Shown: positions 339 through 61,025 of the stretch, one piece after another
Layout: each line of letters opens with the position of its first letter
Position numbering within the stretch: the first letter of the stretch is position 1
Assembly: GCA_945787715.1 (NCBI GenBank)
Contig: CALZJE010000003.1
Location: forward strand, 6,088 to 70,087
DNA length: 64,000 nt
From: an uncultured Ectothiorhodospiraceae bacterium
GTDB taxonomy: Bacteria > Pseudomonadota > Gammaproteobacteria > S012-40
Reading direction: 5' to 3'
The notes under the pieces: model-generated
Database searches by the model: none
Told to the model about the DNA's origin: nothing
Seen by the model: the letters and a program-made list of their open reading frames with translations, nothing else
Position numbers and translations under genes: made by a program

Positions 339-356
339 CCTAGCGCATCATTGCCT

Positions 357-3852
<3,496 letters not shown>

Positions 3853-9092: not shown

Positions 9093-9860
9093 ATGCTAAA
9101 AACTCGAACAATTGTAATGATACTTTCTTTTTTTATGTCTGAAGCTAACGCCATAGTTAATATGGATAACCTCCATTTAAACTCAAATAAGGGAGGAATT
9201 TCAGGGAATTTCAATCTAAATTCATCTGGTGCATATGGGAATAGTGAACAATTTCTTATTGAAAGTGGAGCTGATTTCTATGCCAAACAATCTCAGTCAC
9301 TTCAATATTTAACACTAAACTATAGCTACGGTGAAAGTTTCTCCAAAGAAAATCAAAACAAATCCTATGTTCATCTTCGTCATATCAACAATGTAGACAG
9401 CAGCTCAACTTGGGAAATATTTACCCAAATTGAACAAAACAAATTTGCTCGATTAAACTTTAGAGGTTTAGTTGGTGGAGGCTATCGATGGAGTTTTTTA
9501 AAACATTCTAAACATAGCTCATCAATCATCGGTGTTGGTGCTTACTTTAGTGAGGAATATTTAACCCACTCTAGTGACATTAGTGAAGAAAGAAGCCTGC
9601 AATTGTTTCGAGGTAACTTCTATTGGATTTTTCGCACTAACATCTTAGAGAACATTACATTATTTAACACCACATACTATCAACCTGATCTCGAAAACCC
9701 TGATGATTACCGAGTTTTGGAAATAGCCGGGATCAAAATACCTTTATCAAAAAATTTGAGATTGAATTTATATGGGGAAGGAACTTTCGATAGCAAACCA
9801 CCAGCTAATGTAAAAAAAGGTGATTTGTCATATAAGACTGGAATTGAGTATAAGTTCTAA
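9093..9860 (+). CDS. Outer-membrane beta-barrel protein, DUF481/YdiY-like
   Basis: Signal peptide MLKTRTIVMILSFFMSEANA, alternating beta-strand pattern, C-terminal ..DLSYKTGIEYKF ending in Phe. The overall pattern matches DUF481. Confidence 0.65.
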   Translation: MLKTRTIVMILSFFMSEANAIVNMDNLHLNSNKGGISGNFNLNSSGAYGNSEQFLIESGADFYAKQSQSLQYLTLNYSYGESFSKENQNKSYVHLRHINNVDSSSTWEIFTQIEQNKFARLNFRGLVGGGYRWSFLKHSKHSSSIIGVGAYFSEEYLTHSSDISEERSLQLFRGNFYWIFRTNILENITLFNTTYYQPDLENPDDYRVLEIAGIKIPLSKNLRLNLYGEGTFDSKPPANVKKGDLSYKTGIEYKF

Positions 9861-9909: not shown

Positions 9910-11973
9910 CTAAGATAACTTGGATATATCAGCAATTCGAGAAAATTGTTGATAGAGTTTTGAAAGCATCGCCAAACGATTATTTCTCACAGCTTTGTTA
10001 TCCGTCATTACCATCACGTGATCAAAAAAATCATCTATTGATTCTTTAAGTTGAGACAACAACTTCAGCGCTTGATCATAATCTTGCTTTTCAACGAGTG
10101 AATTTACATCAGACTCTAGCTCAGTTAATCGAGAATAGAGAATATTTTCTTGTTCTCCTTCAAAAAGATCAACATTAACATCTGAAGGCAACTCTTCTTT
10201 ATTTTTACGCAATATATTACTAATTCTTTTATTCGCTGCGGCTAACGCTTCTGATTCTGGTGATTTTTCAAACAACGCTACCGAATTCATGCGCGCATCA
10301 AAGTTTGCAGGTATTGTTGGCCGTGCTGCTAAAACTGCTTCGAATACTTGTGGTCGATACCCTTGCTCGTGATAGTAACCTTTCAAGCGATCCATCATAA
10401 ACTCATAAACTACGCCAACAACTTCATTATTCTTCAACGAATATTGTTTCGCTACGATTGTTAGAAGCTTATCAAGATCAAGTAGCAATGACTTTTCAAT
10501 CATTATTCGCAATATTCCCAATGTCGCCCGTCTTAATGCAAATGGATCTTTATCACCAGTGGGGATTAGGCCAATAGAAAAAATTCCAACAAGCGTATCT
10601 AATTTATCCGCCAGAGAGACAATTTGCCCAACTTTTGATGGTGGCAAACTATCACCAGCAAAGCGAGGCATGTAGTGCTCTAAAATAGCTTCCGCAACCT
10701 CTGCATCTTCTTTATCGTGAAGTGCGTAATAGCGGCCCATTATTCCCTGTAATTCCGGGAATTCACCAACCATTTCTGTCATCAAATCACACTTTGAAAG
10801 TTCTGCAGCACGCACAACGTGTTTTTTATCGACGCCAAGCTGCTTAGCAATTGCTTCAGCAAGCCCCATCACCCGAGTCGTTTTGTCGTATAGCGTTCCT
10901 AATTTGTTCTGGAAAACAACTGTCTTTAATTTTTGTAATTCAGTATTGAGCGGTGTTTTTCTATCCGTATTCCAGAAAAAATCTGCATCACTTAACCGAG
11001 GATGAATAACTCGTTCATTACCCTGTTTAACGGTATCAGGATTTTTACTGTCAATATTTGAAACAGTGATAAAACACGGCAGCAATTCATCATCTTTAAT
11101 CACATGAAAATATTTTTGATGACTTTTCATCGCTGAAACCAAAGCTTCCGAAGGAATTTCTAAAAATTTCTCATCAAAATTTCCTAAAATTGCTTTTGGC
11201 CATTCCACAAGCCCTGTGACTTCATTGAGTAATGCTTCATCAATAACCGCTAAACCATTTACTTTGAGAGCAGCTTGTTCTACTTGCGCTTTAATGGCTG
11301 CTTTTCGTTTTTCAAAATTGGCTAGCACGTGACCATTAAGTTCCAACAACGATTCATAATCTGATGGATTCGGTAATTCGATCGGTTCAGGATAGTGGAA
11401 TCGATGTCCTTTGGTTGTTCTTCCCGCTTTTAATCCGAGTACTGAACAATCGACCACGTCGCTACCGAGCAACATCACTAACCAATGAACTGGTCTTACG
11501 AATTGAGTCTGGCTGTCTCCCCAACGCATGCGCTTTGGTATAGGCAATTTAGCCAGAGCTTCTTCCACCATTGACGGAAGAAGTTCTCTTGTCTCTTCAC
11601 CTTTCACAGTGCTTCTGAAAACTAGCCAGGCCCCTTTATCGGTATCTGCTTTTTCCAATTCGTCTACTGAAACGCCACATGAGCGAGCAAATCCTACTGC
11701 AGCAGGTGTAGGGCAACCGTCCTCTTTAAACGCAGCACTCACTGCAGGGCCTCTTCGTTCAACTTCTTTGTTTTCTTGTTTTAACAAAATAGAAGATATT
11801 TTCACCGCCAATCGCCTTGGGGATGCAAAATTTTCTACTTCACCAAAAGTAACACCAGCCTTTTCCAGACTTTCAACGAGATTGTCAGAAAATGTTTTTG
11901 ATAACTTCTCTAATGCTTTTGGTGGAAGTTCTTCGGTCCCCAATTCAACAAGAAAATCTGCTGTATTTGACAT
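9910..11973 (-). CDS. glyS: Glycine--tRNA ligase beta subunit
   Basis: 687 aa. N-terminus DFLVELGTEELPPKAL and SPRRLAV. The start overlaps the glyQ stop (TAATG). Confidence 0.95.
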   Translation of the reverse strand: MSNTADFLVELGTEELPPKALEKLSKTFSDNLVESLEKAGVTFGEVENFASPRRLAVKISSILLKQENKEVERRGPAVSAAFKEDGCPTPAAVGFARSCGVSVDELEKADTDKGAWLVFRSTVKGEETRELLPSMVEEALAKLPIPKRMRWGDSQTQFVRPVHWLVMLLGSDVVDCSVLGLKAGRTTKGHRFHYPEPIELPNPSDYESLLELNGHVLANFEKRKAAIKAQVEQAALKVNGLAVIDEALLNEVTGLVEWPKAILGNFDEKFLEIPSEALVSAMKSHQKYFHVIKDDELLPCFITVSNIDSKNPDTVKQGNERVIHPRLSDADFFWNTDRKTPLNTELQKLKTVVFQNKLGTLYDKTTRVMGLAEAIAKQLGVDKKHVVRAAELSKCDLMTEMVGEFPELQGIMGRYYALHDKEDAEVAEAILEHYMPRFAGDSLPPSKVGQIVSLADKLDTLVGIFSIGLIPTGDKDPFALRRATLGILRIMIEKSLLLDLDKLLTIVAKQYSLKNNEVVGVVYEFMMDRLKGYYHEQGYRPQVFEAVLAARPTIPANFDARMNSVALFEKSPESEALAAANKRISNILRKNKEELPSDVNVDLFEGEQENILYSRLTELESDVNSLVEKQDYDQALKLLSQLKESIDDFFDHVMVMTDNKAVRNNRLAMLSKLYQQFSRIADISKLS

Positions 11974-12902
11974 TATTTAGCCTCCCCAATGTTTTTATTG
12001 AGCATAGGGAAACCCAAATTTTCTCGACAATCGTAATAAGAGTGAGCAACTGCTTTAGACAAATTTCTTACACGACCAATAAATCTTGCACGTTCTGTCA
12101 CCGATATCGCGTGACGTGCATCTAGCAAATTAAAGGTGTGTGATGCCTTTAAAACCATTTCGTAGGCAGGTAACGGCAAATTCAATTCAATGAGTCGATT
12201 ACCTTCTTTTTCATAAAAATCAAATAGTGTAAATAACGTATCTACAGGGGCATGTTCAAAATTGTAGGTAGACATCTCAACTTCGTTTTGATGAAAAACA
12301 TCGCCATAAGTGACTTTACCTTGTGGACCATTTGCCCAGGTTAGATCATACACACTAGAGACCCCTTGTATGTACATTGCGAGTCTTTCTAGACCATAGG
12401 TAATTTCACCGGTTACCGGTTTGCAATCTAAGCCGCCCACTTGTTGAAAATAGGTAAATTGCGTGACTTCCATGCCATTCAACCAAACTTCCCAACCTAA
12501 CCCCCAGGCACCAAGAGTTGGAGATTCCCAGTCATCTTCTACAAATCGAATGTCATGTTCTAGGGTGTCAAAACCAAGCATTTTCAATGAATCTAGATAC
12601 AATTCTTGAATATTATCGGGAGATGGCTTCAATATTACCTGAAATTGGTAGTAATGTTGTAAGCGATTTGGGTTTTCCCCATAACGCCCATCAGTTGGTC
12701 TTCGCGACGGCTGAACATATGCTGCATTCCATGGTTCAGGGCCAATTGAACGTAAAAAAGTCGCAGGATGAAACGTACCTGCGCCTACCTCTATGTCAAG
12801 TGGCTGAATAATCACACAGCCTTGATCTGCCCAATAGTGCTGTAGAGCAAGAATTAGCCCCTGAAAGGTTGAAATATCAACATTAGCATCCGAAATTTGC
12901 AT
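11973..12902 (-). CDS. glyQ: Glycine--tRNA ligase alpha subunit
   Basis: 309 aa. [39 protein letters not shown] is highly conserved GlyQ sequence. Confidence 0.96.
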
Positions 12903-13128
12903 ATTGTTAGTGTGTTTCGCGAAAAAAGCGTAAGTATACCGATGCCACCCTGCAAAAACTATCTTTGCTGCCTATATCTCACAGGATATTTCATGAAAGT
13001 TATAACAGAGAACTAAAAAGCAGCATTTGCTTAAATCTCCTTTTAATCAAAATGGATAATCAGATCGTAAAGTATGTGTTTATTTGAGCCGATTAACTAA
13101 ACAGACCATTTAAAGAGAATATATCAAT

Positions 13129-13701
13129 ATGTCTCAAATCATTATCGATTCAAGTAGTACAGAACAATGGCAAAAGTTGGTTCATGAAGCAGAATCTTTA
13201 TGTGAATTTCAATTAGACGAAGAGTTAGAAAGCTATTTGGTATTTTTATTAATGCGCTTTTTAGGTCGTTCGGACTTTACTTCTCGAATAATGGCGATGG
13301 ATTATCTTCATAGCCTAATCCAAACCGGTCAATTACAACAGGAAAGCTTAAGAGATGTGGGGGATCACTGTTTACTGTTTTCTGGTCTATTCCCAAAAAT
13401 AGCAGAGAGACGAAGTGTGAAAATTAGCTACTACGTTGGGATTGGCAAAAGTGCGTATAGCCACTTGGCTGATACCTGCAAAGAAAGTTTAGGAACTTTT
13501 TACCGCCAGTTAGCTGATGCTTTTGTGCAACTAATGGATATTCTTCAAGTAATTGGCAATATGCGAAACAACGCAGAAGTTCTTTCGCCATTAGAAGCAC
13601 TAGAATTATGGGGAGATACTCAAAGTAAACAAGCACTTAGATCCATCCGAAGCTTTTCAAAGGGAACACCAATAATTCATTCGCAATCCACAAAGCATTA
13701 A
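13129..13701 (+). CDS. Hypothetical protein
   Basis: 190-aa ORF with coding-like composition and no overlap with other genes. I recognised no motif. Confidence 0.45.
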   Translation: MSQIIIDSSSTEQWQKLVHEAESLCEFQLDEELESYLVFLLMRFLGRSDFTSRIMAMDYLHSLIQTGQLQQESLRDVGDHCLLFSGLFPKIAERRSVKISYYVGIGKSAYSHLADTCKESLGTFYRQLADAFVQLMDILQVIGNMRNNAEVLSPLEALELWGDTQSKQALRSIRSFSKGTPIIHSQSTKH

Positions 13702-13822
13702 ATAATATTTTCGGCATAAATAATGTATTTATTACAGTAAGCAGCTTTAGCTATCTTTAGTTTCGTGATTTGATAATTAACCCAGCCGAATTAAATTCGA
13801 AGTCTTTCTTTTCTTTTCCCAC

Positions 13823-14082
13823 AGTTATCCACTTCCTCTAATAAATAATATATCTATATATAAAAACTTATTGTTATTATTGGTTCAATCATTTTTGTGG
13901 TTAAGTTTCGATTTAGTTATATTTTTCATCATCTTACTGAGAGTTTTTTGTATTAACAAATTGTATAAATATACTTAACTAAGCTGTGGGTAACTTGTTC
14001 ACAAAAAGCGTTATTTTCCGTTCCGATTTTCTATTAACAAGTTATCAACAGTCTATTCCAATTTTATACACGTGTTTTTAAG
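13823..14082. repeat. DnaA-box module copy A
   Basis: Aligns along its length with 14462-14724. Examples: ATATATCTATATATAAAAAcTT.. against ..aTT.., and TAAGCTGTGGgTAACTTGTTcACAAA against TAAGCTGTGGaTAACTTGTTtACAAA. Both copies end in ..TTATACACG.GT..TTTAAG. Confidence 0.7.
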
Positions 14083-14461
14083 AATAAATGGCGATCTACG
14101 AGTATTTACCGTTACTAGGTTAGTTAAATACCAGTATTTTTTATGGATATGATTATTACTCGATTCAAACGCAGTGCTTTATTGCAGAAATGCTTTTAAA
14201 ATGACTGATAATTATTAACCACTCTTTTCACATTTACTCTCCAAAATAAAACATTTCTATTATTAGGGGAATAAGAGTTGAATTTAGTGATAATATTTCT
14301 TATAAGAATTTTTTGGCTTTTTACAGATCTTCAAAAACTTTCTACCGGCATAAAATTTGAATCTAATTTATTAAACATATTAACCCCTTTATGTTTTTGG
14401 CTGCTGGTTTGAGACTTCCCCTTAAAACTCAGATCAGCAGCTTTCCTTTATTATTTTTCTT

Positions 14462-14724
14462 TAGTTATTAACATCTCTATATATAAATATATATCTATAT
14501 ATAAAAATTTGTTGTTGTTATTGAGTCTAAAATATTTGTGGGTAACTTCTATTATCTTATTATTATTCAATATGTTATTTATCAGTATAAGGCTCAACAA
14601 GTTGTATGGATATACTCATCTAAGCTGTGGATAACTTGTTTACAAATATGGTCTTTTTTACATAGAAAATTTTATCAACAGCTTATACACAAGCTACACA
14701 AGTGTTATACACGCGTTCTTTAAG
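14462..14724. repeat. DnaA-box module copy B
   Basis: Direct repeat of copy A at an offset of about 641 bp. It carries the only perfect DnaA box in the region. Confidence 0.7.
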
Positions 14725-14857
14725 TCAACTTTTGATATTTTTTAACCATTTCCCTCCACTTTTTCAGCTACAATATGCAGTATTTTTTGTAATCCTCCAC
14801 CTGTTGTTATTCTAGGATCGGCTCCTTGGAGTATCTGGAGGTTATGTTTTAATTTTT

Positions 14858-15916
14858 ATGAGAGTTTTTATGAGTAAACAGCGAAAAGCCGTTGCATTAA
14901 TTTCTGGTGGATTGGATTCTTTATTAGCTGCAAAGGTATTGCTTGAGCAGGGTGTTCACGTAGAAGGAATAAATTTTTACACAGGTTTTTGTGTTGAAGG
15001 ACATACCCATGCAATACGTAAAAAAGGCAAAGATAAAGTAAAACGAAATAATGCATTGTGGTCTGCAGAACAATTAGGCATTAAATTGCATATTGTCGAT
15101 GTCATAGAAGAATACAAAGATGTTTTGATTAATCCCAAACATGGTTATGGTGCAAATATGAACCCCTGTCTGGATTGCAAAGGCTTCATGGTTCGTAAAG
15201 CAATGGAGTGGATCAAAGAAAACAATTTTGATTTTATTGTTACCGGTGAGGTTATTGGCCAGCGGCCTATGTCTCAGCGTAAAGATACTATGCCAATCAT
15301 TGCAAGAGAATCCGGAGCAAATGATCTGCTTTTAAGACCACTATGCGCCAAATATTTACCAGAAACCAAGCCGGAAAGAGAAGGTTGGGTGGATCGTGAA
15401 AAGCTCTATGATTTCAGCGGCCGTTCACGTAAACCACAAATGGCTCTAGCGGAAAAATTTGGTTTTTCCGAATATGCCCAACCCGCCGGTGGATGCTGTT
15501 TTCTAACAGATAAATCTTACTCTGATCGACTTGTCGATTTATGGAAAGCGCGTGATGATGATCGTAATTATGAAATGGATGACATCATGTTGTTGAAAGT
15601 GGGGCGGCATATACGTCCTAAACCACACTTCAAAATGATTATTGGTCGTGAAGATGGTGAAAACAAATTTATGTCTGGTTACAAAAAACAGTTTGCTCAT
15701 ATGTATGCGACTAGTTGTGTTGGTCCCCTGGTGTTAATTGATGGTCCAGCAACAGAAGAAGATTTGGCATTGGCTGCACAAATTACGGCCAGATTTAGCA
15801 AAGGAAGAACTGAGCCATCAGTAACTGTAGAAGTGACAGATGCTCATGGAGTTTCTAAACTCTTAAATGTTGCACCTCTCAAAGAACACGAAATACTTGC
15901 AGAGTGGCAAGTGTGA
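14858..15916 (+). CDS. PP-loop ATP pyrophosphatase, ThiI/MnmA-like sulfurtransferase family
   Basis: The N-terminal KAVALISGGLDSLLAA is an SGGxDS PP-loop, and conserved Cys residues (NPCLDCK, GGCCF) are present. It is translationally coupled to a TusA-like gene. The start may be ATG 14870. Confidence 0.65.
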   Translation: MRVFMSKQRKAVALISGGLDSLLAAKVLLEQGVHVEGINFYTGFCVEGHTHAIRKKGKDKVKRNNALWSAEQLGIKLHIVDVIEEYKDVLINPKHGYGANMNPCLDCKGFMVRKAMEWIKENNFDFIVTGEVIGQRPMSQRKDTMPIIARESGANDLLLRPLCAKYLPETKPEREGWVDREKLYDFSGRSRKPQMALAEKFGFSEYAQPAGGCCFLTDKSYSDRLVDLWKARDDDRNYEMDDIMLLKVGRHIRPKPHFKMIIGREDGENKFMSGYKKQFAHMYATSCVGPLVLIDGPATEEDLALAAQITARFSKGRTEPSVTVEVTDAHGVSKLLNVAPLKEHEILAEWQV

Positions 15917-16143
15917 GTGTTTATAAATTGGATGCTAGACGTTTACTCTGTCCGATGCCGGTAATTCGTACTCAGAATAAAATAAAAACACTTAAAGCGG
16001 GAGACACACTGGAAGTAATTTGTACTGATCCAGGCGTACTTCAAGATATCCCTGCTTGGTGTAGAATTAATGGACATAAGTTTCTGAGTCACGAAACAGT
16101 TGATGAAGAAATTATTTTAAAAATAGAGGTGGGCGAAGATTGA
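15904..16143 (+). CDS. TusA/SirA-family sulfur carrier protein
   Basis: 79 aa. LDARRLLCPMPVIRTQNKIKTLKAGDTLEVICTDPG has the CPxP active-site motif. Uses a GTG start and overlaps the upstream gene by 13 nt. Confidence 0.75.
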   Translation: MASVSVYKLDARRLLCPMPVIRTQNKIKTLKAGDTLEVICTDPGVLQDIPAWCRINGHKFLSHETVDEEIILKIEVGED

Positions 16144-17303
16144 GCGATCAATCGGAGCAATCTGAATCCGCAGTCAGATACCAGCAAGTAAAAAAAGTCA
16201 CCTTAATTGGTGCTCTCGTTAATGCATTCCTAGCCGCATCTAAAATTATCCTGGGTTACATTGGTCAATCACAAGCTCTAGTTGCTGATGGAGTTCATTC
16301 CTTAGCGGATCTAGTTAGCGATATTATTGTGGTATATGCAGCGAAACATGGATCCCGCCAAGCAGACGAAGACCATCCGTACGGTCACGGTCGTATAGAA
16401 ACGGTTGTAGAAGTTTTATTAGGTTTTTTGCTTATTGCTGTAGCACTTGGTATTACGATCGATGCAGTATCAAGAATTAATACGCCCGATCTACTTCTTT
16501 CGCCGACTTGGTTTGCATTAGTAGCAGCATTGATTTCGATTTTTGCGAATGAAGTGCTGTTTCAATATACATTTACAGTTGGTAAGAAAGTAAAATCCAA
16601 CTTACTCATTGCCAACGCCTGGCATCATCGAACAGACGCAATCTCTTCAGTAATTGCACTTATTGGGATTGCAGGTGCGATGCTTGGTTTTCCTTTATTG
16701 GATGCGGTAGCGGCGATTGGTGTTAGCCTTCTTATTTCAAAAGTTGGCTGGGATATTTCTTATCGTGCATTTAAAGAGCTTATTGATACTGCACTTGAAG
16801 CAGAAAAAGTTGAAAAAATAAAAGCATTAATTTTATCGGTAGATGGCGTTAAAGCTGTCCATTCTTTACGGACACGAAGCATGGGCACCTATGCTCTTGT
16901 GGATGTCCACATTTTAGTGGTAAATTCACGTATTAGTGTCTCAGAGGGACATCAGATTAGCGAAAGCGTAATGTACAGGTTACTTAAGGGGATTGATGAG
17001 GTATCCGACGTAACCGTCCATATTGATCCGGAAGATGATGAAACTTGTGCACCATGCAGATATTTGCCATTACGTAAAGATTTTCAAATTTATCTGAACT
17101 CTGTATTCGAGAACAATAGTTACTATGATCGAGTGACAAAATCTACACTGCATTATTTGAATGGAAAAATTATTGTTGAGTTGGTTTTACCGGTTTCAAT
17201 ACTAGATGAAAATATCACCGCCAGTGATATTTTTTCTTCGTTCAAAGATTTCGAAGATCCAAAAAGCTACATCGCAGAAATTAATATTCTCTTTGGATTG
17301 TGA
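16140..17303 (+). CDS. Cation diffusion facilitator (CDF) family metal efflux transporter
   Basis: Six transmembrane segments with HSLADLVSD (TM2) and WHHRTDAISS (TM5) metal-site motifs, plus a C-terminal cytoplasmic domain. Overlaps the TusA-like gene by 4 nt. Confidence 0.85.
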   Translation: MSDQSEQSESAVRYQQVKKVTLIGALVNAFLAASKIILGYIGQSQALVADGVHSLADLVSDIIVVYAAKHGSRQADEDHPYGHGRIETVVEVLLGFLLIAVALGITIDAVSRINTPDLLLSPTWFALVAALISIFANEVLFQYTFTVGKKVKSNLLIANAWHHRTDAISSVIALIGIAGAMLGFPLLDAVAAIGVSLLISKVGWDISYRAFKELIDTALEAEKVEKIKALILSVDGVKAVHSLRTRSMGTYALVDVHILVVNSRISVSEGHQISESVMYRLLKGIDEVSDVTVHIDPEDDETCAPCRYLPLRKDFQIYLNSVFENNSYYDRVTKSTLHYLNGKIIVELVLPVSILDENITASDIFSSFKDFEDPKSYIAEINILFGL

Positions 17304-53632: not shown

Positions 53633-54799
53633 GTGATTAAAAATAGGTATTGGAAAAATTTGTTAAGCTTGAGAAACATGACTATGTTGACTGAAAAATT
53701 ACAAACAAATATAAATTTAACACTAGCCGTATTAATAATCTTGTTTTATGGCGGTGTTGTCGCCGCGCAGCCCTTTAAATTAAATACCATAGCCGAAGGT
53801 TTAGAGCATCCATGGGGAATGGCATTTTTACCTAATGGTGATATGTTGGTGACTGAACGACCTGGCCGTTTACGTTTAATTCGCGATGGTAAGTTGATAA
53901 GGCAAGCGATTGTTGGGTTGCCAAGAATTGAGGCGAATGGCCAAGGTGGTTTGCTTGATGTCGTGTTACATCCAGACTATTTGAAAAATGGTTGGATTTA
54001 TTTTTCCTATGCTGAACCTGGTTCGGGGGGGGTTGGTACTGCGGTGAGCCGTGCACGTTTGAAAGGCCTGCAATTATTGGATGTGGAAAAAATATTTAGC
54101 ATGAATATTAAAAGTGGTGGAGGTCGGCATTTTGGTTCTCGTCTATTGTTCGATCAAAAGAGATATCTTTATATAACTGTCGGTGAACGAGGTGATAAAG
54201 AAAGAGCCCAATTGTTGAATGATCATGCAGGTTCAGTGATACGTCTATACGATGATGGTCGAATTCCAAAGGACAATCCATTTGTTAAACGAGCGGATGT
54301 TAAAGCTGAAATTTATTCCTATGGTCATCGTAATCCACAGGGCATGAGTCTGCATCCACAAACTGGCGATGTGTGGATACATGAACATGGTCCTCAAGGT
54401 GGGGATGAACTAAATCGTATACAATCGGGAAATAATTATGGCTGGCCAGTGATTACTTATGGTGTGAATTATTTTTTTGGTACAAAAATAGGCGAGGGAA
54501 CACATAAAGCTGGCATGGAGCAGCCACTCTATTATTGGGTGCCATCTATCGCACCTTCTGGTATGGCTTTTTATACCGGTGATAAATTTCCCAGATGGAA
54601 AAATAACTTGTTCATCGGTTCATTGAAGTTTCAGTTATTGGTGCGACTAGAGCTACTAGGTGAAAAAGTAGTGAAAGAAGAGCGTCTATTGGAAGGTAAG
54701 CTGGGGCGTATTCGAGATGTACGAACAGGTCCTGATGGTCATCTCTATTTGCTCACCGACGAAAAAAATGGCATGGTCGTTCGCTTGGAGCCATTGTAA
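53633..54799 (+). CDS. PQQ-dependent soluble sugar (aldose) dehydrogenase, YliI-like
   Basis: LEHPWGMAFLPNGDMLVTERPGRLRLI, GLLDVVLHPDY, YSYGHRNPQG and NYGWP. The start is probably an internal Met near 53678-53684. Confidence 0.88.
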   Translation: MIKNRYWKNLLSLRNMTMLTEKLQTNINLTLAVLIILFYGGVVAAQPFKLNTIAEGLEHPWGMAFLPNGDMLVTERPGRLRLIRDGKLIRQAIVGLPRIEANGQGGLLDVVLHPDYLKNGWIYFSYAEPGSGGVGTAVSRARLKGLQLLDVEKIFSMNIKSGGGRHFGSRLLFDQKRYLYITVGERGDKERAQLLNDHAGSVIRLYDDGRIPKDNPFVKRADVKAEIYSYGHRNPQGMSLHPQTGDVWIHEHGPQGGDELNRIQSGNNYGWPVITYGVNYFFGTKIGEGTHKAGMEQPLYYWVPSIAPSGMAFYTGDKFPRWKNNLFIGSLKFQLLVRLELLGEKVVKEERLLEGKLGRIRDVRTGPDGHLYLLTDEKNGMVVRLEPL

Positions 54800-60591: not shown

Positions 60592-60957
60592 TATGATGTC
60601 GCTTAGGTTTGAGGTTGATTATATAGTAAGCAGAACTTTACTCTGATTTACTAAGCCGATACTAAGAAGCCACATAACAGTGGTAGAGTTTTGATGGTGG
60701 TCTTCTGCATCTGATGCGTGCTAAATGTGAGTTGTAGATAATCCATAGATTCATTCCATTGACTCAAGGCTTATGACACACAGTGTTAGTTTGCATGCAC
60801 AAATCCCCATCATCAACTTAATATTATCGGATGACTAATATATAAGTCATAACTCTTGTTTAACCTATTAATCTTTTACAATATTTCCATAACTAAAACA
60901 ATCGCCTGATGCCGTTGTGGACAAAATACATGCATATTGTAAAGTTTATGAAATAAA

Positions 60958-60975
60958 TGTCATAGATTTGTAACA
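60958..60975 (+). promoter_or_regulatory. Pho box upstream of phoB
   Basis: TGTCATA-GATT-TGTAACA: two 7-bp half sites 11 bp apart, about 50 bp upstream of phoB. Confidence 0.55.
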
Positions 60976-61025
60976 ATAGATCGTTTTAATAACAGCAAAT
61001 TTCCATAATGATTTATGAGTGTGTC

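Follow-up and report, generated by a model that had tools for sequence, protein, structure and literature searches.

Bacterial chromosomal origins (oriC) are usually treated as fixed beside dnaA or mnmG, and displacement has been inferred only across very distant groups. Here we ask whether a gap at positions 13702-14857 of a 64-kb stretch of DNA from an uncultured gammaproteobacterium (∼38% GC; the whole stretch is referred to as the window herein) is such a displaced origin. An original prediction had pointed to duplicated modules of DnaA boxes and AT tracts in this gap and had proposed either a bipartite oriC or a datA-like sink for DnaA. Judging from sequence comparison, the gap is very probably the genome's DnaA-dependent chromosomal origin, moved ∼14 kb from dnaA and then duplicated in tandem, and we class it as a DnaA-dependent oriC that is relocated, inverted, and tandemly duplicated.

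Results

DnaA boxes cluster in a gap without conserved genes

The gap spans 1156 bp at 27.9% GC and, in agreement with its earlier description as gene-free and very AT-rich, contains no conserved open reading frame (ORF). Only short ORFs of at most 61 amino acids were found, none of which stays open in relatives. For instance, the orthologous sequence of the longest one, which lies in the second of the two cassettes described below (cassette B), is broken by stop codons in L167 and L169 (loci of related genomes are designated by L and a number herein). No match was obtained with Rfam, either at the gathering threshold over the whole window or at E ≤ 1 over 13500-15000, or in a tRNA scan, and a sigma-70 promoter scan of the gap returned fewer sites than in shuffled sequences.

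One criterion for oriC is a cluster of at least three DnaA boxes that have at most one mismatch to TTATCCACA (PMC4403523). Within 13825-14691 we found eight such boxes, four per cassette, vs 0.40 ± 0.65 expected in the gap (maximum 4) from 1000 dinucleotide shuffles, and these make up 8 of the 34 boxes of this quality in the window. When two mismatches were allowed, the count rose to 16 vs 5.0 ± 2.2 (maximum 12) in the same shuffles, a recount that replaces the 12 boxes reported before. The paired motif TAAGCTGTGG(G/A)TAACTTGTT(C/T)ACAAA was found in both copies and the perfect TGTGGATAA at 14626-14634, both as previously described. R1-type boxes are reverse-oriented TGTGNAWAA boxes located about two helical turns to the right of the DNA unwinding element (DUE). 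We observed R1-like boxes, TGTGGTTAA (13896) and TGTGGGTAA (14537), in the expected place and orientation, with one mismatch each at position 6. Elsewhere in the window, three boxes with at most one mismatch occur within 300 bp at 54082-54380, inside the gene at 53633-54799, and two occur at 60733-60924 in the 60592-61007 intergenic region.

Each repeat copy holds a complete cassette

The gap contains a direct repeat of 170 nt with 72% identity at an offset of 641, and a profile search covering the 64-kb window delimited just two cassette copies, 13813-14074 and 14454-14715. While this bears out the repeat and the offset of the two homologous ∼260-bp modules proposed originally, the duplicated unit is longer than 260 bp. 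Its two copies start with CGGCATAAA at 13712 and 14346, which gives a repeat unit of ∼634 bp. The first unit includes a 256-bp stretch (14082-14337) whose counterpart is absent from L167 and L169.

Each copy is a full ∼250-bp cassette with its own AT tract, R1-like box, IHF-like site, and box pair. On the + strand, the order within the cassette is the AT tract with its T-rich end, followed after ∼14 bp by the reverse R1-like box, then the IHF-like site and an inverted pair of strong boxes, TGTGGATAA-N48-TTATCCACA, the right member of which is preceded by a second tandem box. The IHF consensus is WATCAANNNNTTR; the sites of both cassettes are given in Table 1. An AT tract opening each module had been proposed, and we found ATATATCTATATATAAAAA at 13848 and 14489. 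The tract of cassette A is nearly invariant across all cassettes.

We calculated duplex stability as a nearest-neighbor profile over 41-bp stretches, the DUE method of the Weigel preprint being stress-induced duplex destabilization (SIDD). The two least stable duplexes of the window were 13839-13879 and 14466-14506, that of cassette B ranking first and that of cassette A second. Their values of −35.9 and −35.7 kcal/mol lie ∼4 standard deviations from the window mean of −51.7 ± 3.8. By nearest-neighbor stability, both AT tracts thus represent a candidate DUE that flanks a box array, as expected of oriC.

Between the cassettes and just upstream of cassette B lies the hairpin GCTGCTG...CAGCAGC with its T-rich run, already noted from the sequence, which resembles an intrinsic terminator. 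It comprises 15 bp around a 14-nt loop (ΔG −22.9 kcal/mol, z = −4.4) and its ability to fold into a hairpin is kept in L167 and L169. In the alignment used for covariation, MAFFT placed L169 one base off. A terminator scan did not call this hairpin of the gap because of the 14-nt loop. The hairpin and T-run may shield cassette B from transcription. GATC occurs three times in the spacer (14093, 14326, and 14432), rather than only twice as first stated, and four times in the whole gap. This is approximately the chance level and, therefore, sequestration of the Dam/SeqA type is not indicated.

Strand bias switches at the gap

The raw GC skew switches sign near 13-14 kb, with a cumulative minimum at 14801 within the window. 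Since gene orientation switches there as well, we measured the GC3 skew, i.e., G vs C at third codon positions, per gene and in + strand coordinates. This measure was independent of gene strand (two-term fit: strand term 0.01, side term 0.13). The 12 genes to the left averaged −0.14 and the 40 genes to the right +0.14 (Mann-Whitney p = 2e-5). Every gene from recF through glyQ was negative, including all three + strand genes left of 13 kb (recF −0.11, gyrB −0.16, and 9093-9860 −0.34), and the minus-strand genes right of the gap were mostly positive. The likelihood change point was located at 15535 (2-lnL support interval, 12108-17291). Within the 64 kb, the skew switch that is expected of an oriC is thus found at the gap. 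With recF and gyrB negative vs positive genes on the right, the two sides of the gap belong to different replichores, and an origin adjoining dnaA would not yield this pattern.

Relatives carry the same cassette beside dnaA

We used RecF relatives to fetch dnaA regions from the same large contigs and searched a profile built from seven cassettes of the window clade against 2.1 Mb of related loci. Outside the window clade, full-length matches were found only in L174 and L175, in the gap between rpmH and dnaA, and in L173 and L123, in the gap between dnaA and dnaN. Each match is colinear over ∼210 of 265 profile positions, and ten copies align colinearly once those of the window are reverse-complemented. 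The order in the aligned copies is box pair, IHF-like TAA-N5-TGA, R1-like box, and then AATAAYAAYAATAAGTTTTTATATATA. For instance, the dnaA-dnaN gap of L173 begins TGTGGATAACTTGTT...N...TTATCCACAG with the AT tract next, and the rpmH-dnaA gaps of L174 and L175 are arranged alike. L173 shares one 697-kb contig with L083, whose glyQ-side gap is without a cassette; L174 lies on the contig of L081 and L175 on that of L086.

The strand bias follows the cassette. In L174 and L175, the GC3 skew flips between rnpA and dnaA (rpmH|dnaA), exactly at the cassette. In L173, it flips between dnaA and recF, at the dnaA-dnaN cassette. In the window and in L167, it flips at the gap between a 190-aa gene and a PP-loop gene, where their cassettes sit. 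In L173, L174, and L175, the profile matches the very element where the skew changes sign (E = 7e-14 to 5e-16). This homology, together with the strand-bias switch, strongly supports the original prediction of a chromosomal origin in an unusual place. The oddness of that place is confirmed by the relatives, which carry the same cassette next to dnaA.

The much more distant L123 matched at E = 2.5e-7, and no skew test is possible there. Its genome has 56% GC and a PP-loop protein 72% identical to that of the window, and its AT tract is almost identical (CCTAATAACAACAATAAGTCTTTATATATAAAAACTTATT); the unwinding sequence is therefore conserved across a wide GC range.

Two loci, L170 and L171, were placed in the window clade by RecF identity (89% and 78%), GC content, and shared samples. 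In L170, all genes from dnaN to gyrB have negative GC3 skew, as does every gene from gidB to gyrB in L171. Across the window, L170, and L171, 9 of 9 genes between dnaA and gyrB are negative, vs 0 of 8 in L174 and L175. We found no cassette match in L171/L172 or L170, in a search that covered the mnmG and rpmH regions of L171. What L171 keeps is a decayed remnant directly after the dnaA stop codon, ATTGAATAACGTGTTTAC...TTATCCACA, made up of a degraded left box plus flank and a perfect right box. The contig of L170 breaks off within a long inverted repeat (1-170, GGAAAGTCATTTTGA...TCAAAATGACTTTTCC), 170 bp upstream of dnaN, so that the dnaA-dnaN gap of the nearest relative is unreadable. The dnaA-dnaN gaps of L171, L174, and L175 share a same-orientation tandem box pair, T.ATCCACAGCTT.TCCACA, whether or not a cassette is present. 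This pair may be a control site of the dnaN promoter or an old part of the origin.

These comparisons bear on the idea that the gap is a DnaA regulatory locus of the datA or DARS kind, or a DnaA-controlled promoter of the PP-loop/TusA operon, and that the true origin is still at dnaA. Such an arrangement would have parallels, as E. coli has DnaA-box clusters outside oriC, and it could find room in the dnaA region of the window's own genome, which is outside the 64 kb. L171 also still has one perfect box in its rpmH-dnaA gap and one in its dnaA-dnaN gap. However, the negative skew of recF-gyrB in the window, of dnaN-gyrB in L170, and of dnaA-gyrB in L171 is the opposite of that in L174 and L175, and the cassette is missing from the searched regions of L170 and L171/L172. 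In addition, the homology to the element at which the skew of relatives flips extends over the whole length, and the two duplex stretches with the lowest stability in the window lie within the gap. We therefore regard a regulatory locus as improbable. E. coli datA, which lies away from the origin, combines a cluster of DnaA boxes with an IHF site and lacks a DUE. The proposal of a datA-like sink is unlikely for a cluster that sits at the skew switch, in the least stable DNA of the window, and in a clade where no other cassette was found at dnaA.

The tandem copies are older than the split of three lineages

Legionella was considered as a source on the basis of GC content and gene order. Proteins of the window match only uncultured gammaproteobacteria, the nearest named relatives being ∼72-77% identical. 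Distant relatives found through the PP-loop protein (80 genome loci and most of 80 metagenome loci) showed no box cluster beside the PP-loop gene, and blastn of the gap against these loci gave low-complexity matches only. Closer loci, L081-L091 (79-84% protein identity), retain the order glyS-glyQ, 190-aa gene, PP-loop gene, and their gaps of 138-766 bp are without boxes and without a cassette match. Within the same 90% protein cluster as the window, L167/L168 and L169 carry two cassettes and L165 carries one, all in the same gap. Both cassettes of L167 and of L169 have the perfect inverted pair with starts 57 bp apart.

In a distance tree, the A copies group together, the B copies group together, and the single copy of L165 falls outside both. 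This implies that the cassette reached the gap first, was then duplicated in tandem, and was already present in two copies when the lineages of the window, L167, and L169 split. Identities were 0.69-0.76 for A-A, 0.75-0.78 for B-B, and 0.63-0.70 for A-B; since A-A and B-B exceed A-B, both copies have been retained since before the lineages split. Retention in three lineages suggests, as far as sequence can tell, that both copies are used, at least as DnaA-binding platforms.

Whether both also act as origins is a different matter. It is nearly an even bet that just one cassette works and that the other is redundant, auxiliary (a platform that loads or titrates DnaA), or decaying, comparable with the "downgraded" oriC1 predicted in Halomonadaceae. 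A single working origin is the bacterial norm, and in predicted dual origins one member is often weaker. Moreover, perfect boxes are lacking in cassette A of the window, while cassette B contains one as well as a tandem pair, and L165 manages on a single cassette. On the other hand, the AT tract, R1-like box, IHF-like site, and box pair are kept in both copies in the window, L167, and L169. The box pairs are perfect in both copies of L167 and L169, and the identities place the retention of both copies before the lineage split.

The variation among relatives also raises the question of whether the element in the gap stems from an integrated plasmid, a phage, or some other mobile element, whose origin it would be, or reflects faulty assembly. 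Gap size ranges from 138 to 1156 bp with variable content, and the cassette occurs at three different chromosomal sites. Yet there are no replication-initiator, integrase, or transposase genes or terminal repeats around the gap, its flanks are syntenic housekeeping genes, and the same tandem arrangement is present in the separate assemblies of the window, L167, L168, and L169. The two copies are only 67-72% identical and hence are not a collapsed or expanded repeat. We consider a mobile or artifactual source very improbable, the least probable of the explanations considered here.

Discussion

Our preferred reading of the gap as a relocated and duplicated oriC includes the following history, as shown by the comparison of relatives. 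In relatives, the cassette adjoins dnaA, in the rpmH-dnaA or the dnaA-dnaN gap. In the window clade, an inverted copy very probably entered the gap that separates the 190-aa and PP-loop genes, after which the old copy decayed. The new copy was then duplicated in tandem after the L165 lineage branched off.

In E. coli, recruitment of the single-stranded DUE involves DnaA at R1 and the next box which, with the bend at IHF, holds the T-rich strand (PMC5716108). The element order and orientation of the cassettes on the + strand are the same as in the left half of E. coli oriC in that model (DUE, R1, IHF site, DnaA oligomerization region). By analogy, DnaA would occupy the R1-like box together with the strong pair, bending at the IHF-like site would bring the DnaA oligomer to the T-rich strand, and the AT tract would melt so that the helicase can be loaded. 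The cassettes differ from E. coli oriC in having no 13-mer repeats and no enrichment of GATC (4 in 1156 bp), in having an inverted pair of strong boxes 48 bp apart, in their location outside mnmG-mioC, and in a left gene that reads toward the DUE.

Several observations weigh against assigning the gap as oriC. All genomes concerned are metagenome assemblies, and the evidence consists of sequence statistics with nothing experimental. No replication-related indicator gene (dnaA, dnaN, mnmG, etc.) adjoins the gap, whose neighbors are a 190-aa hypothetical protein and the PP-loop/NFACT-R gene. The support interval of the skew switch is ∼5 kb, so that skew can neither tell the two cassettes apart nor rule out a location a few kb off. 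The window excludes its own dnaA region, where the absence of a cassette is inferred from L171/L172 (78% RecF identity) and L170 (89%), and the clade placement of L170 and L171 lacks physical linkage to a cassette. Both R1-like boxes carry their one mismatch to TGTGNAWAA. The basal unwinding system (BUS) criterion calls for a run of at least three DnaA-trios (NAN) within 16 bp of the DUE-proximal box (PMC8287927). Inspection by eye of the 14 bp that precede each R1-like box gave no (NAN)3 run on the + strand; CAA TAA TAA CAA TAA occurs on the complementary strand, which is the wrong one under our reading of BUS orientation. Lastly, the left neighbor of the AT tract reads toward it. In the Weigel survey, transcription of the left-hand gene leads away from the DUE (counter-clockwise), with no exception among confirmed origins. 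The same cassette obeys this rule in L173 (dnaN) and L174 (dnaA), and we attribute the breach in the window to the inversion of the insertion.

Other systems with more than one box cluster provide comparisons. In Pseudomonas and Halomonadaceae, oriC1 at rpmH and oriC2 at mnmG lie 5-30 kb apart and are ancient, not recent duplicates of each other. The window resembles this pair in that two complete DnaA-dependent origin sequences lie close by on a gammaproteobacterial chromosome, with an AT tract, an R1-like box, and an IHF-like site in each where the pair has a DUE, an R1-type box, and an IHF site. It differs in that its copies are 641 bp apart in one gap, are clear tandem duplicates, and lie at neither rpmH nor mnmG. 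Two separated DnaA-box clusters are also found in the bipartite origins of Bacillus subtilis and Helicobacter pylori. By definition, a spacer gene, usually dnaA, separates the two clusters of a bipartite origin, one of which alone has a DUE (PMC4285127). The spacer of the window has no conserved ORF and there is an AT tract in each cluster. Each copy is complete and arose by tandem duplication, and the term bipartite, used in the original prediction, does not apply. Among known tandem pairs of oriC, DU1 of Mycobacterium bovis BCG Pasteur comes closest, a recent 29.7-kb duplication of dnaA-oriC in a laboratory-passaged vaccine strain, with copies that are identical per Gao. DU1 and the pair of the window are both natural tandem duplications that give two oriC copies per chromosome. 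Unlike DU1, the duplication in the window covers only ∼0.63 kb, its copies are ∼70% identical, and it is conserved across lineages.

Within related genomes, the cassette occupies at least three intergenic sites within ∼20 kb. A bolder proposal, which we hold to be possible but doubtful, is that oriC of this clade is a portable ∼250-bp cassette that relocates by copy-then-decay through dual-origin intermediates, and that the window preserves such an intermediate, its two complete tandem copies 641 bp apart both being functional and selected across species. If true, a single intergenic region of a natural bacterial chromosome would hold two DnaA origins that both fire. One cassette at three sites, a strand bias that tracks each site, and a decayed remnant offer a concrete copy-then-decay route of relocation. 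The tandem pair of complete cassettes also provides a natural test case for DnaA-limited initiation with two adjacent origins. Origin prediction based on indicator genes, or on which way the left-flanking gene is transcribed, may overlook the origin of the window.

Coordinates and surroundings of the gap

Table 1. Features of the gap, its neighborhood in the window, and matching sites in related loci
Feature	Coordinates	Strand	Remarks
First tandem-duplication unit	13712..14345	+	opens with CGGCATAAA; holds cassette A and the 256-bp stretch
oriC cassette A (probable)	13813..14074	+	nhmmer profile match E = 9e-65; orthologous to L167A, L169A
Box A0 TTATCCACT	13825..13833	+	1 mismatch; left of AT tract
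AT tract A, candidate unwinding element	13839..13881	+	ATATATCTATATATAAAAA, then T-rich CTTATTGTTATTATT
Box A1 TGTGGTTAA	13896..13904	−	R1-like; 14 bp right of T-rich run
IHF-like site A TTCATCATCTTA	13925..13936	+	conserved pattern TCA(A)-N4-TTA
Box A2 TGTGGGTAA	13985..13993	−	left member of inverted pair
Box A4 TTATCAACA	14042..14050	+	right member of inverted pair; start 57 bp from A2 start
Distal box-like 9-mer TTATACACG, cassette A	14064..14072	+	2 mismatches; conserved in window-clade cassettes
Hairpin and T-rich run	14399..14463	+	between cassettes
oriC cassette B (probable)	14454..14715	+	nhmmer profile match E = 1e-63; orthologous to L167B, L169B
Box B0 TTATTAACA	14465..14473	+	2 mismatches
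AT tract B, candidate unwinding element	14466..14522	+	ATATATCTATATATAAAAA, then TTTGTTGTTGTTATT
Box B1 TGTGGGTAA	14537..14545	−	R1-like
IHF-like site B TTCAATATGTTA	14566..14577	+	
Box B2 TGTGGATAA	14626..14634	−	perfect match
Tandem boxes B3 TTATCAACA and B4 TTATACACA	14672..14691	+	B4 start 57 bp from B2 start
Distal box-like 9-mer TTATACACG, cassette B	14705..14713	+	
recF	351-1430	+	
gyrB	1405-3852	+	end 9.85 kb from gap
glyS	9910-11973	−	
glyQ	11973-12902	−	
190-aa ORF	13129-13701	+	left neighbor of gap; conserved, no Pfam/NCBIfam match
PP-loop/NFACT-R gene	14858-15916	+	right neighbor of gap
Cassette match in L174			rpmH-dnaA gap; profile E = 5e-16
Cassette match in L175			rpmH-dnaA gap; profile E = 7e-14
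Cassette match in L173			dnaA-dnaN gap; profile E = 7e-14
Cassette match in L123	110-329		dnaA-dnaN gap; profile E = 2.5e-7
Tandem box pair in dnaA-dnaN gaps	L171 8690-8707; L174 8720-8739; L175 8566-8585		

The position of gyrB, which ends at 3852, agrees with the distance of ∼10 kb to the gap given earlier. The 190-aa gene on the + strand is transcribed toward cassette A and is kept at the same position in all syntenic relatives, cassette present or not. To the right of the PP-loop gene follow TusA, a CDF transporter, and then glnA. The PP-loop gene (14858-16143 region) encodes a fusion of a PP-loop ATPase with an RNA-binding domain of the NFACT-R (DUF814) type. This protein is unusually conserved, with 70-89% identity across many gammaproteobacterial families, and a TusA-like gene comes after its gene in relatives too.

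The gap of the window is without a gene for a hydrophobic peptide of 26-27 amino acids that occurs, as one gene or two in tandem, in the same gap of several cassette-less relatives (L081 9740; L084 1864 and 2224; L085 2339 and 2719; L086 9403; L087 736 and 1097). The peptide resembles MGNQTxxVIFxGLxLxLFVLLPxMAN, and its gene is preceded by the conserved motif TTGTGGTAAA ... TAATGCTAAGGTTTA.

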